A stretch of DNA of 64,000 nt from a virus, in IMG/VR virus record IMGVR_UViG_3300050821_003228, positions 33,818-97,817 of that record; one strand, written 5' to 3'. Shown piece after piece: positions 12,661-34,038 of this stretch. The first letter of the stretch is position 1; every line of letters starts with the position of its first letter. The notes beneath the pieces were generated by a model. That model was not told the origin of the DNA, did not search any database, and was given only the letters and a program-made list of their open reading frames with translations. Made by a program: the position numbers and the translations under genes.

Positions 12661-12863
12661 TTTTGATGGGAAGTTGGCTTAGAAGCAGCCATCTTTTAAA
12701 GAGTAGCACTGAACGTGGAACCACTTAAAAAATAGGGCACTCAATTTTAAAACCTATTTGATCCTATACAGGCGGTATAGGTTGAGGACAGTCCCGTATT
12801 GAGCGTTTCTCAGGACGGCCATTTGGCCGATAACACTTTTGGCGTAATAGCACACCATCAAAA
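12661..12863 (+). ncRNA. 23S rRNA GTPase-associated-centre (uL11-binding, H43-H44) mimic RNA with a 137-nt insert
   Basis: GGAAGTTGGCTTAGAAGCAGCCATCTTTTAAAGAG (12669-12703) and GCGTAATAGCACAC (12842-12855) match the conserved 23S 1055-1104 region. Closed by TTTTGATGG/CCATCAAAA. Confidence 0.85.
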
Positions 12864-15319: not shown

Positions 15320-16120
15320 TTGAGCAAAGTATTGGATGCTGCTACAAAGCTTGTAACTAAAGAGGAAGCTGAAACTGAAAAATTATTGAGTGAAGCGGCA
15401 TTGCGTCGTTTTCGTCTTGAATCGGAGAGAAAGAATGGCCCGAAAGAAGATGAACTGATTCTTGCCCGTCGTCAGGCTGAAGTTGAAAAAATTAAGAATG
15501 AGTCTCAGAAGGCCCACTTTGAAGCGGCCTGTGCGGAATTGATTTTCAATAACGCAAAACGTGAAGAAGATAAGATTCTGACTGGCGACCGTTATAACAA
15601 AGTTTATCGCTTTGTTCATGAAGTTTGTCATGAATCTGTCGCTGACTGTATGATGATTCTTTCTCGTTGGTCGCGTCTTGAGCCGGAATGTGCGATGGAA
15701 ATCGTATTCTGTTCGCCCGGTGGAAGCATTATTGACGGTTTCGCTCTTTTCGATTTTATCCAAGATTTGAAAGCAAAGGGCCATAAGGTCACTACAAAAT
15801 CAATCGGTTATGCTGCAAGTATGGCAGGTGTATTGTTACAGGCCGGAAGTGATCGAGTGATGGGCCGTGAATCGTGGCTTTTGATTCATGAAGCTTCATT
15901 CTTTGCGATGGGTAAAATCGGCGCGGTTGATGATACGGTTGAATGGATCAAAAGGATGTGTGATCGTATTGTAGACATTTTCGCTGAACGTGCATCCGAG
16001 AAAACTGGAAAATCAGTAAAGGCAATTCGGGCAACAATTAAAAAGAATTGGCTTCGTAAAGATTGGTGGCTTTCTGCTGACGAGGCGCTAGAGTACGGTT
16101 TTTGTGATCGTATTAGTTAG
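15320..16120 (+). CDS. ClpP-family serine protease with N-terminal coiled coil
   Basis: SPGGS..DG, GYAASMA (Ser), LIHE (His), DWWLSA.EALEYG.CDRI (Asp). Confidence 0.85.
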   Translation: MSKVLDAATKLVTKEEAETEKLLSEAALRRFRLESERKNGPKEDELILARRQAEVEKIKNESQKAHFEAACAELIFNNAKREEDKILTGDRYNKVYRFVHEVCHESVADCMMILSRWSRLEPECAMEIVFCSPGGSIIDGFALFDFIQDLKAKGHKVTTKSIGYAASMAGVLLQAGSDRVMGRESWLLIHEASFFAMGKIGAVDDTVEWIKRMCDRIVDIFAERASEKTGKSVKAIRATIKKNWLRKDWWLSADEALEYGFCDRIS

Positions 16121-16128
16121 GAGAGAAT

Positions 16129-16338
16129 ATGTCAGTTAATGAAGCAATAATGTTTATACATCCGCTAGATTTTGTAAGAATGCTGAATCATCGTGATGGT
16201 CCGATTGATATTATATTTCGGAAATTACACGGTCTTCAGGTGAATGAAGTTAATGGTGTAATATATTATCAAACGGTTGAAGTGCCAGAAACGCTTCAAG
16301 ATGCAGAACCGGCCAACTGTTGGCCGTATAAATTTTAA
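16129..16338 (+). CDS. Hypothetical protein
   Basis: AGGAG RBS plus ATG. Confidence 0.6.
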   Translation: MSVNEAIMFIHPLDFVRMLNHRDGPIDIIFRKLHGLQVNEVNGVIYYQTVEVPETLQDAEPANCWPYKF

Positions 16339-16341
16339 AGT

Positions 16342-16437
16342 TTGTAGTGGTGATTGATAGAGATACTTCAAGGTGAAAGTTGACTAATACTCAACGTGCT
16401 GTCGAAAGCACAAGCCTCTGTCGCTTGTTCCCTACAA
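16342..16437 (+). ncRNA. Y-RNA-like element 4
   Basis: TTGTAG-TGGTG-ATT-GATAGAG-A-TACTTC...CTCTGTC-GCTTGTTCC-CTACAA; two internal hairpins. Confidence 0.75.
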
Positions 16438-16446
16438 TTAAGTTTT

Positions 16447-16521
16447 GCCCGTATCGTCTAAAGATAAGGCCCACGCCCGATTAGCGTGAGATGATCGGTT
16501 TAATTCCGACTACGGGTACCA
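16447..16521 (+). tRNA. tRNA-Ile(GAT), C33 variant
   Basis: GCCCGTA/TACGGGT acceptor; CACGC-ccGATta-GCGTG; ACCA. Confidence 0.8.
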
Positions 16522-16523
16522 AT

Positions 16524-16598
16524 GCTCGGCTAGTAGAGTGGCTATAACACTTCTCCTACAAAGAAGAGAGCAAGGTTCGATTCCTTGGCTGAGTACCA
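16524..16598 (+). tRNA. tRNA-Val(TAC), C33 variant
   Basis: GCTCGGC/GCTGAGT acceptor; CTTCT-ccTACaa-AGAAG; TTCGA T-loop; ACCA. Confidence 0.85.
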
Positions 16599-16606
16599 TT
16601 TTTATT

Positions 16607-16926
16607 GAGGCAATAACTCGGCACCTGACTGAATAAGGATTGCCAGTCCTCAAAGTATGGGATAGCTAACCGAGAGGTTACTATTCTAGTTGTTGCGTAA
16701 TCGCTACATAAAGGTCTAAATAGTGGCTCTAGATCGAGAGCCATGACGTAAGGACACGACAAATCGTCTATTATACATAGAGATGGCTGTATCGTGCTGT
16801 GAGTAACCATACTCACCAGACATTAACTGTTAGAGTAATTACCTAACAGGTCTGTGACCGAATAATGAGGCGTTTACTGCGAACTTATGGGTATTCTCAA
16901 ATCCCATGATGCTGAGTTATTGCCTC
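16607..16926 (+). ncRNA. Large (about 320 nt) structured ncRNA of unknown class
   Basis: 17-bp closing helix GAGGCAATAACTCGGCA/TGCTGAGTTATTGCCTC and at least 7 internal hairpins; lies between two tRNAs with no credible sense ORF. Confidence 0.7.
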
Positions 16927-16929
16927 TAT

Positions 16930-17005
16930 ACCGGGATCGTTCAACATCCGAGGACGGTTGCCTTTGAAGCAATTTATCTAGGTTGGAATCCTAGTTCCGG
17001 TGCCA
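16930..17005 (+). tRNA. tRNA-Gln(TTG)
   Basis: ACCGGGA/TTCCGGT acceptor; GTTGC-ctTTGaa-GCAAT; GCCA. Confidence 0.85.
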
Positions 17006-17042
17006 TTTTTCACAAGGCATTGTTTAAAAGTGCGACGGGAGC

Positions 17043-17072
17043 GCGGCTCGGATTAATTTCCGGGCCGTTTTT
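17043..17072 (+). terminator. Rho-independent terminator ending array 1
   Basis: GCGGCTCGGA/TCCGGGCCGT hairpin followed by a T-run. Confidence 0.75.
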
Positions 17073-17084
17073 ATTGGAGTAATT

Positions 17085-17363
17085 ATGAAGTGTGGAAACT
17101 GTTATCAAGAACAGCCGTGTAAATGTATTGTGAACACTCCAATTCATGAGCACCAAAAAATTAAATCTAGAACGAATGGACAAGAATATGAAATTATGTT
17201 TGGTCCTCAACCTGGAAATTTAGTTCCGGCTAACCCATTTGCCTCAAAACTTCAAAGTCGATTTGCTCATGCTAATCCTGATAAGTTTGGTGGCAAAAAG
17301 GGATTAGAACATTGGGATAAGGTTACTAACTACTCTAGTTTACCTGAAAAGAAGGAAGGGTAA
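17085..17363 (+). CDS. Hypothetical protein
   Basis: GGAG RBS; Cys-rich N-terminus. Confidence 0.55.
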   Translation: MKCGNCYQEQPCKCIVNTPIHEHQKIKSRTNGQEYEIMFGPQPGNLVPANPFASKLQSRFAHANPDKFGGKKGLEHWDKVTNYSSLPEKKEG

Positions 17364-17367
17364 TTCT

Positions 17368-17817
17368 TTGGCGTTTGACTACATTTGCGAAGGCCCTCCA
17401 ACATTTCCAGTAACAATGAATCCGGCTTTACTATTAGATATAGTAAATAACAATCTCTATGTTTCTTCGCCATACAGCACGAACTGGATTCTAATTGGTA
17501 ATTCGGGCGGAACTAATGATTCTGTCCAGAATGCAAATATATCACAGACAATTAGTTTCCTTGGCGCAACTAATACATTTTTAAAAGCTACTGCTGGAGT
17601 GCCCGGAATTACATTAACTCTGCCCGATTCAGTTGGTAATTCGGGACAAAGAGTAACAGTTATCATGGTTGATACTGGTGCCGGTGGAGTTACGATCAAT
17701 ACAACAAATTCTGAAACTATTAATGGAAATTTATCTTATGAACTTACGAATCAATATCAAGCAGTTACTTTTGAGTCCGATAACGCTAATTGGTTTGTCG
17801 TTGCTACTTCTAACTAG
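17368..17817 (+). CDS. Tail fibre-associated beta-domain protein
   Basis: ITLTLP...GQ.V.V.....VTI....ETING...L..QY..V.F.SD..NW phage fibre domain pattern. Confidence 0.6.
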   Translation: MAFDYICEGPPTFPVTMNPALLLDIVNNNLYVSSPYSTNWILIGNSGGTNDSVQNANISQTISFLGATNTFLKATAGVPGITLTLPDSVGNSGQRVTVIMVDTGAGGVTINTTNSETINGNLSYELTNQYQAVTFESDNANWFVVATSN

Positions 17818-33538: not shown

Positions 33539-34038
33539 GTTTAAACAAAGATAACGCTTTATCAAAGGAAACCGAATACCGCAAGAAATACGGTCCGCGA
33601 TATACGTATTTATTTAAATGTTCTGAACCAGAATGCACTAAAATAATAAGAGTTAGAAGTGATTATCTTAACCGATCATCGGGTCAATGTAATATTCATT
33701 CTCATCAAAAACGTCCATTTGAAAGTTTATATAACTCATTATATAACGATTGGCGCGGTACTGAAGTAACCTTAACTTATGAAGAGTTTTTAGAATTTAC
33801 AAAAATTAAAAAATGTCATTATTGCAGTTATGGTATTTTGTGGATTCCATTTGGAACGGTAGCGGGAGAGTACAAATCAAGAGCATATTACTTAGATAGA
33901 AAAAATCATAATGAAGGGTACACTAAAGAAAATTGTGTTGTTTGTTGTTCTAAATGCAACATCATTAGGCGGGACCACTTTACATATGAACAATTTTTAG
34001 AAATTGGTAAATTAATAAATAAATGGCGTATTGAATAA
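33526..34038 (+). CDS. HNH-type homing endonuclease
   Basis: LTYEEF...CHYC...LDRK....GYTKENCV.CC..CN; paralog of 38411-38950. Confidence 0.8.
   Translation: MRTVSLNKDNALSKETEYRKKYGPRYTYLFKCSEPECTKIIRVRSDYLNRSSGQCNIHSHQKRPFESLYNSLYNDWRGTEVTLTYEEFLEFTKIKKCHYCSYGILWIPFGTVAGEYKSRAYYLDRKNHNEGYTKENCVVCCSKCNIIRRDHFTYEQFLEIGKLINKWRIE

Follow-up and report, generated by a model that had tools for sequence, protein, structure and literature searches.

What is encoded in the 320 nucleotides (nt) that separate two tRNA genes of a soil phage, and does this interval hold a functional RNA or an insertion carried along with its neighbors? The DNA analysed here, called the window, is a 64,000-nt stretch comprising positions 33,818 to 97,817 of the 97.8-kb IMG/VR virus record IMGVR_UViG_3300050821_003228, which has direct terminal repeats; the interval in question, 16607-16926, lies between tRNA-Val and tRNA-Gln. 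An earlier annotation made from the letters alone (the original prediction) had proposed an unassigned multi-branched noncoding RNA (ncRNA) excised by tRNA processing. The analysis presented below shows that the + strand of 16607-16926 encodes a stable ncRNA of about 320 nt that belongs to a conserved family unannotated in Rfam 15. The family is new and of intermediate size; its roughly 30 distinct sequences covary heavily and contain a pseudoknot as well as two palindromic loops that themselves covary. Our reading of the whole, to which we assign a probability of roughly 0.7, is that of a self-assembling, manA-type RNA of phage tRNA arrays.

The predicted minimum free energy of the + strand is −116.6 kcal/mol, compared with −79.5 ± 6.0 kcal/mol for dinucleotide shuffles (z = −6.15), and none of 100 shuffles was equally stable. 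The minus strand folds about equally well; however, the G.U pairs in the closing helix P1 (17 base pairs (bp), one of them G16620.U16913) and in the GGGAUAG/CUAUUCU stem become A.C mismatches on that strand, which favors the + strand. The terminal helix, seven hairpins and repeated GACYGAATAA motif described in the original prediction are all present in the sequence, and the helices are kept by compensatory changes in 22 homologues. The elements of the RNA are, from 5' to 3':

16607-16623, + strand: 5' strand of the 17-bp closing helix P1, paired with 16910-16926 in the predicted fold
16625-16636, + strand: module A strand CUGACUGAAUAA, in which UGAAUAA forms one strand of an internal loop; a module of the manA consensus
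16635-16651, + strand: hairpin H1 (AGGA/UCCU, 16637-16649), from the covariation scan
16659-16687, + strand: hairpin H2 (helix 4), stem GGGAUAG..CUAUUCU with a GNRA loop, GAGA in the window and U-GAAA-A in most members
16693-16717, + strand: 5' strands of the long-range helices around the central domain (LR0 at about 16693-16706, CAU at 16707-16709, GGUCU at 16713-16717)
16723-16744, + strand: hairpin H3 (UGGCUCU/AGAGCCA, 16724-16743), loop AGAUCG at 16731-16736 with the palindrome GAUC
16745-16754, + strand: junction GACGUAAGGA, almost invariant in the family (CGUAAG.A)
16753-16798, + strand: hairpin H4 (helix 8), stem CACGA/UCGUG (16755-16796), with conserved GACAAAUCGU and CUGUAUC
16799-16816, + strand: hairpin H5 (helix 9; GUGAGUA/UACUCAC), loop UAACCAUA, family consensus UAAnCAnU
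16817-16854, + strand: hairpin H6, outer and inner stems (helices 10 and 11; CAGAC..CUGUUAG/CUAACAG..GUCUG)
16853-16886, + strand: module B strand UGUGACCGAAUAAU, the second motif copy, with the 3' strands of the long-range helices (helices 5 and 6)
16887-16907, + strand: hairpin H7 (helix 12; AUGGG/CCCAU), with an 11-nt loop that has diverged in the window
16910-16926, + strand: 3' strand of P1, from the fold and the homologue comparison

The window copy carries all 12 covarying helices along with P1 and LR0, and departs from the family structure only by a U.U in LR2 and by a shift of register in LR1, of 1 nt. The long-range 5' strands at 16693-16717 flank the conserved CAUAAGGU..AAAUAG (helices 5 and 6), the loop of H6 (16834-16842) contains the palindrome GUAAUUAC, and the H1 loop GCCA (16642-16645) pairs with UGGC (16784-16787) in the interior of H4, forming either a pseudoknot or a kissing interaction (helix 3). 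The repeated motif, in its longer form TGACYGAATAA, lies at 16626-16636 and 16855-16865. Its count alone is at the level of chance (3 matches with at most one mismatch in the window, 3.4 expected), and both copies are kept family-wide. The motif had been described as lying in plain linkers, and this did not hold: the two copies are the same module, in which GAC (GACY in copy 2) pairs in a covarying helix while the remainder (UGAAUAA in copy 1, GAAUA in copy 2) forms a conserved internal-loop strand opposite (U)AA(G). Specifically, ACU 16628-16630 pairs with AGU 16654-16656, with compensatory change in all three pairs (helix 1), and UGACC 16855-16859 pairs with 16713-17.

No Rfam family was found for the RNA stretch at gathering threshold or at E ≤ 10 when 16000-17300 was searched with the 4227 families of Rfam 15, a check that the original prediction had proposed. 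By Rfam, the RNA is not RNase P (ribonuclease P), transfer-messenger, signal recognition particle or group I/II intron RNA, of which the original prediction had recognised no hallmarks, nor is it GOLLD or ROOL. Single-sequence approaches to homologues also came back empty: comparison of the RNA and the 6 kb around it with INPHARED phages by BLAST and megablast, nhmmer and blastn against loci around relatives of the Ro60 and ClpP-like proteins, a query of the whole records of five relatives, and IMG/VR scans for the terminal-helix sequences or for both exact TGACYGAATAA copies at the window spacing gave no match. The family emerged from conserved elements. A search of GTDB genome contigs for the motif pair at the right spacing gave 34 loci, two of which, L141 and L129, are homologues (nhmmer E = 3.5e-10 and 1e-7) on tRNA-rich contigs of metagenome-assembled Bacteroidales genomes, with stems that visibly compensate; the other 32 had no profile hit, look like chance matches and were rejected. 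The block CGUAAGRA-N3-GACAAAYCGU, derived from the first three sequences, retrieved 31 IMG/VR loci, 28 of them with full-length homologues (E 1e-22 to 1e-50), and a second, independent scan with module B and the H7 loop contributed 7 more, whose contigs measure 33-554 kb.

Two IMG/VR members used as BLAST queries placed the family in the Lak megaphages of Prevotella (15 of 15 records) and in a phage of 735 kb (LR756501/LR756503), with full-length copies confirmed in Lak-A1 (MK250015, reverse strand, about 492,020-492,315), Lak-B2 and LR756501. The RNA is unannotated in all of these records; the published genomes of the largest known phages thus share with the soil phage an RNA gene that had gone unmarked. 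Many of the IMG/VR member contigs are 180-554 kb long, and the family ranges from the 98-kb soil phage to megaphages of 540-735 kb. In total, about 30 distinct sequences of 280-366 nt were collected (profile E 1e-17 to 1e-80), so that the homologue search called for in the original prediction yielded both relatives and strong covariation. A leave-one-out nhmmer profile built from the 22 other members finds 16626-16907 (E = 7.1e-28, 91.9 bits) as its sole match in the 64-kb window.

Covariation was assessed in an alignment of 23 sequences, the 22 homologues and the window copy, with 63% mean column identity. It contains long invariant single-stranded blocks, and the conserved parts are internal loops and junctions. 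RNAalifold returned 58 pairs, 45 of them with compensatory changes. When 64 named pairs were scored, those of the pseudoknot among them, 96.4% of cells could pair, compared with 73.5% after shuffling and 38-45% when partners are slid; double changes occur in 48 of the 64, and the covariation score of 0.673 (0.216 for shuffles) was reached by none of 500 shuffles. The pairing between the H1 loop and the H4 interior was revealed by a scan over all column pairs: it is 96.7% paired, three of its four pairs are compensatory, and between the otherwise near-identical Lak-A1 and Lak-B2 copies GACA/UGUC is swapped for AGCA/UGCU. P1 was misaligned by MAFFT, as its sequence differs in every lineage. Nearly all 22 homologues nevertheless have about 8-16 complementary bases of unrelated sequence at the same two places, and LR0 is likewise kept with unrelated sequences. 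Compensatory changes in all of the listed helices across the 22 homologues place the structure well beyond chance.

The RNA is expressed and accumulates in soil metatranscriptomes. Runs were found through a word index, and four RNA runs were compared with window positions 15800-17500. Three of them, which carry three study codes and possibly stem from one campaign, yielded contigs of 238-243 nt with 100% identity to the window. Their spans and depths are 16632-16869 (125.8), 16635-16874 (13.8) and 16642-16884 (8.1). Coverage of the ClpP-like gene and of the tRNA stretch was only 2.2-3.3 in the best run, and the RNA core is about 45 times deeper than the neighboring gene; a local peak of this height argues against DNA carry-over. 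The contigs give neither the ends nor the strand of the RNA. Taken with the folding z score and the covariation, they bear out the proposal of a multi-branched ncRNA, which lies on the + strand within the tRNA transcription unit.

What such an RNA might do is suggested by two of its hairpin loops. The core of the H3 loop varies among GGCC, GGCU, GGUC, GUAC and GAUC (GAUC in the window), all of which were counted as self-complementary, and the H6 loop varies among UAAUUA (GUAAUUAC in the window), UAGCUA, UGAUCA and UCAUGA, the last in the Lak and megaphage copies. Nearly all members have self-complementary sequence in both loops, and changes between variants of either loop are double changes that preserve the palindrome. 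When the palindromes were scored as if they were pairs, 92.8% of cells pair, compared with 5-50% when slid by one or two columns; adjacent columns 147-148 hold GC 18 times, UA three times, AU once and GU once, and columns 271-272 hold AU 15 times and GC 8 times. Adjacent bases cannot pair inside one loop, and the constraint must therefore act between two copies of the RNA. Palindrome covariation of this kind has been taken as a sign of symmetric kissing loops in OLE and GOLLD, where it was confirmed by cryo-electron microscopy (cryo-EM; bioRxiv 10.1101/2024.12.08.627333). For manA RNAs, a cryo-EM preprint of July 2026 (bioRxiv 10.64898/2026.07.01.735769) reports octamers, decamers and a cage of 60 subunits made of pentamers, with kissing loops and a GNRA-receptor contact holding it together. 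The present family also has a conserved GNRA-type loop in H2. From these patterns we infer that H3 and H6 serve as symmetric kissing loops by which copies of the RNA contact each other, and that the copies would build a defined RNA-only homo-oligomer, such as a ring or cage.

The comparison with manA (RF01745), a riboswitch candidate described in 5' untranslated regions (UTRs) (Weinberg et al. 2010, PMC2864571), rests on the ends of the molecule. The full RF01745 model matches L141 with 26.4 bits (E = 6.7e-5), and in this alignment P1, GUGACUGAAUAA, H1, UAAAGU and the 3' hairpin coincide with their counterparts in the model at high posterior probability. In 16 of 22 records RF01745 matches (11.7-28.7 bits) coincide with the place of the family member, and none occur in 14 control genomes; L129, L141 and L127 match no Rfam family at threshold. 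Canonical manA, taken from Prochlorococcus phage P-SSM2 (181.6 bits to RF01745), shows the order of elements, namely the closing helix, GUGACUGAAUAA, a hairpin, UAAGGU and a 3' hairpin, GGUAAUACAGAAACC, that abuts the closing helix. The window RNA begins with its closing helix, CUGACUGAAUAA, H1 and CAAAGU, which is the manA order of closing helix, GUGACUGAAUAA, hairpin and UAAgGU. In manA and in the family, the closing helix leads directly into GUGACUGAAUAA, whose GAC pairs with GU(N) after H1 opposite a UAAG strand, and a 5-bp 3' hairpin with an 11-nt loop (UA..CAG.AAU) adjoins the 3' strand of the closing helix. The family H7 loop, UAGUCAGGAAU, matches the 3' hairpin of the manA consensus, and GGUAGUCAGGA(A/G)UC is found in 20 of the 23 aligned members (GGUA..CAG.AAUCC in manA). 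In the window copy, the H7 stem and the length of its loop (11 nt) are preserved, as are loop positions 1, 2, 5 and 9-11, with UC replacing the consensus AG. Both RNAs are phage-encoded, and loop-loop contacts are central to manA biology.

The two differ in size and setting. Canonical manA is about 190 nt long, whereas members of the family measure 280-366 nt and only they carry the second GACUGAAUAA module, the long-range helices, hairpins H3-H6 and the two palindromic loops. In cyanophages and marine bacteria, manA is found in the 5' UTRs of metabolic genes (upstream of purL and hsp20 in P-SSM2, not among tRNAs), whereas the family occupies tRNA arrays of gut, soil and other phages; the window RNA itself stands between two tRNA genes ahead of a terminator-like site, not in the 5' UTR of a protein gene. 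The shared terminal clamp of P1, module A, H1 and H7 points to an expanded and diverged relative of manA, and we file the family as a variant related to manA and not as a member of it. The proposal that the RNA is distinct thus holds in part: the family falls below the RF01745 cut-off, yet its closing helix, GUGACUGAAUAA module and 3' hairpin are held in common with manA. A weak match to a different family was seen at L141:6934-7050, where RAGATH-14 (21.6 bits, cut-off 149) aligns to H6 with its loop AUUAGCUAC carrying UAGCUA; the same kissing-loop-like hairpin may recur in the unrelated RAGATH-14 family.

Two further large RNAs share the setting of the family. GOLLD (RF01998) and ROOL (RF03087) also reside in phage tRNA arrays and are abundant, stable RNAs, and they too were flagged as homo-oligomers by covarying symmetric palindromic kissing loops. 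They are much larger (about 580 to more than 800 nt) with unrelated secondary structures, and they resemble the window RNA neither in sequence nor by Rfam model, which gave no match at E ≤ 10 in 16000-17300. The T4 tRNA cluster likewise encodes stable non-tRNA species, RNAs C and D (species 1 and 2), which are co-transcribed and processed with the tRNAs and, at about 120-140 nt, are shorter than the present family. Few classes of large structured RNA of unexplained role are known, and three of them, GOLLD, ROOL and manA, were recently reported as RNA-only oligomers or cages; the family described here links the fold of manA to the tRNA arrays in which GOLLD and ROOL reside.

That niche recurs among the relatives, which belong to tailed-phage genomes and typically stand in their tRNA gene arrays. 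Among the first 22 homologues to be aligned, 17 are located within such arrays and share the strand of the tRNAs in every case, and the Lak copies are flanked by tRNA-His or tRNA-Thr and tRNA-Met. P1 lies 0-8 nt from a tRNA in L168, L167 and the window, and 50-200 nt away in others. The window array and its surroundings are laid out as follows:

16447-16518: tRNA with anticodon loop CCGAUUA, Ile-GAU-like, found with Rfam only (34.4 bits) and missed by ARAGORN
16524-16598, + strand: tRNA-Val(UAC) with encoded CCA, found by ARAGORN and by the Rfam tRNA model (48.1 bits)
16930-17005, + strand: tRNA-Gln(UUG), found by ARAGORN and Rfam
17043-17068, + strand: terminator-like hairpin with a T run after tRNA-Gln, the end of the transcription unit

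No promoter-like site was found on the + strand immediately upstream, and the neighboring genes are all on the + strand. P1 begins 8 nt after tRNA-Val and ends 3 nt before tRNA-Gln, distances that make release of the RNA through tRNA processing plausible. The RNA is probably set free when the flanking tRNA-Val and tRNA-Gln are processed: it is transcribed together with the tRNAs, its 5' side would be defined by tRNA-Val 3' processing 8 nt upstream of P1, and an RNase P cut at the 5' end of tRNA-Gln would leave a 3-nt tail. In the folded RNA, P1 clamps the two GAC-UGAAUAA modules, the seven hairpins, the long-range helices and the H1-loop/H4 pairing, elements that covariation bears out; the H1-loop/H4 pairing may form within or between molecules, and the palindromic loops of H3 and H6 would join copies into a ring or cage. 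At a guess, the assembly would act during infection as a scaffold or container for tRNAs, ribosomes or host RNA-handling factors. A more specific proposal, that the family is a further class of phage RNA cage descended from the manA fold within tRNA arrays and combining H3/H6 kissing with a heterotypic H1-H4 contact, is in our estimate a little short of even odds. Should self-assembly hold, RNAs of this type would be a recurrent accessory of phage translation modules; the molecule offers a cryo-EM target of about 300 nt with explicit interface predictions, and the family provides a missing RNA gene model for the annotation of tRNA arrays.

Several observations weigh against a self-assembling, manA-type RNA of tRNA arrays. 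All of the argument for oligomerisation, itself a prediction, comes from the loop palindromes, and L171 lacks the one in H6. All members fall below the RF01745 gathering cut-off of 55.2 bits, the window RNA has no match to that model even at E ≤ 10, and the sequence-only family profile fails to find canonical manA. Kinship with manA is therefore based on shared modules, whose convergent use is possible. Five members have no tRNA within the fetched locus. The RNA-seq contigs stop short of P1 and H7, leaving 16607-16631 and 16885-16926 uncovered. Finally, L014 (Ga0181514_1013637), the closest relative among the matches listed by identity of the ClpP-like protein (70%), has tRNA-Ile, tRNA-Val and tRNA-Gln back to back at 1053-1295, followed by a similar Cys-rich small open reading frame (ORF); its Val-Gln gap is 3 nt, without the 320-nt RNA. 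The RNA gene is therefore either dispensable or recently gained, having been gained or lost between close relatives.

The arrangement in L014 can also be read as the empty site of a miniature inverted-repeat transposable element, with the 17-bp helix as its terminal inverted repeats, inserted between tRNA genes and passively transcribed. The tRNA order is the same and the 320 nt look inserted, the inverted ends look perfect, and TAT flanks both sides if a 1-nt offset is allowed. Nevertheless, homologues preserve the terminal helix with wholly unrelated sequences, a pattern of covariation rather than of conserved inverted repeats. Conservation falls on internal loops and junctions, each genome carries a single copy and the IMG/VR scan for the same ends was empty, no transposase or convincing target duplication is present, and the RNA is about 45 times deeper than the flanking gene. 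We rejected the mobile element on its covarying ends, single copy and conserved internal loops, and regard it as very improbable. A still smaller chance is given to a diverged catalytic RNA, for instance a reduced RNase P RNA serving the phage tRNA array. The size is similar, the window phage has no RNase P RNA of its own, GACCGAAU..UGAGGC loosely resembles the conserved ACAGAA..CGGCUUA region, and the array of the relative L011, whose Ro60 is 61% identical, holds a genuine 322-nt class A RNase P RNA. That gene is found by the same search that gives no model match in the whole window phage genome at E ≤ 10. Furthermore, the helix order does not fit, P2 and P3 are missing, the 3' strand of the would-be P4 is separated from P1 by an additional hairpin, and family-wide the GAC bases pair with GGU and not in a P4. 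Both model and helix topology fail, and this candidate was rejected.

A riboswitch or other cis-regulator, the role first proposed for manA, would sense a ligand and control expression or tRNA processing. It could draw on the manA precedent in 5' UTRs (PMC2864571) and on the highly conserved junction nucleotides, which might form a binding pocket. But what follows the RNA is a tRNA and then a terminator-like site, not an ORF, 17 of 22 members share the array setting, no expression platform is apparent, and a stable RNA that stands on its own agrees with the closing helix and the high steady-state level; we regard regulation in cis as quite improbable. Greater, though still low, likelihood attaches to a monomeric protein-binding or decoy RNA, such as a Ro60/Y-RNA partner or an anti-defence decoy, that does not self-assemble. 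A Ro60 (TROVE) gene lies 1.7 kb upstream in the window, and 5 of 18 other records have a TROVE/Ro60 gene at a distance of 2-8 kb (G008, G009, G010, G011 and G016, the records of L170, L169, L157, L163 and L168, respectively). YrlA-like matches below threshold occur at L129:6073-6175 (44.7 bits), about 300 nt away from the L129 copy of the RNA, and at L141:1064-1177 (26.2 bits), about 5.6 kb away from the L141 copy, and an rRNA-like element is present in the same array. Yet 13 of the 18 records, among them a complete 554-kb and a 95%-complete 227-kb genome, have no TROVE protein, and a monomer leaves the conserved palindromic loops unexplained; on balance we consider it unlikely and prefer the self-assembling RNA. 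Co-occurrence of the RNA, Y-like RNAs and Ro60 in one tRNA array, as seen in the window, is a tendency and not a rule.

The arrays and their contents vary across the family. The next downstream gene is tRNA-Gln in the window and tRNA-Met(CAU) in at least 7 arrays:

L198, 1811-1884: downstream tRNA-Met(CAU)
L200, 1734-1807: downstream tRNA-Met(CAU)
L160, 673-747: downstream tRNA-Met(CAU)
L158, 3136-3210: downstream tRNA-Met(CAU)
L159, 2733-2807: downstream tRNA-Met(CAU)
L171, 12830-12906: downstream tRNA-Met(CAU)
L129, 6188-6265: downstream tRNA-Met(CAU)

In L168, a tRNA-Met ends 1 nt ahead of P1, and the GOLLD example chosen for cryo-EM also lies downstream of a Met-tRNA (bioRxiv 10.1101/2024.12.08.627333). 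Suppressor-type tRNAs with UUA and CUA anticodons occur in RNA-bearing arrays (L141:7324-7398 and L155:3716-3788), which is in keeping with stop-codon recoding of the kind reported for Lak phages (PMC6784885). A subgroup of long members (335-366 nt), comprising L199:1487-1842 from LR756501 together with L164, L156, L173, L162 and L181, has an extra hairpin in the H6 region and GUGGGUGAA in place of GUGACUGAA in module B, with no tRNA within the fetched loci and no RF01745 match. No account of this long form or of such an RNA in Lak phages was found in the literature, a search that was incomplete and is weak evidence of novelty.

In its own phage genome the RNA at 16607-16926 is present as a single copy, at the end of an array that includes tRNAs, a Ro60-type protein (PHROG 'RNA-binding protein') and a ClpP-like protease. 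Relatives of the ClpP-like protein reach 76% identity in the protein collection and at most 55% in the IMG/VR alignment scan. The tRNA-Ile(GAU) of L014 occupies the position syntenic to the Ile-like tRNA at 16447-16518. The class A RNase P RNA of L011, present also in L003, lies at L011:3047-3368 in IMGVR_UViG_3300050821_003619, a 109-kb phage with terminal repeats; no paper on phage-encoded RNase P RNA was found in a literature search that was likewise incomplete and counts as weak evidence of novelty. It is situated between tRNA-Leu and tRNA-Thr, lacks P13/P14 and scores 148.7 bits against a cut-off of 100 (E = 6e-48). Elsewhere in the window, positions 12669-12709 resemble positions 1096-1145 of the bacterial large-subunit rRNA model (28.4 bits, E = 8.5e-6).

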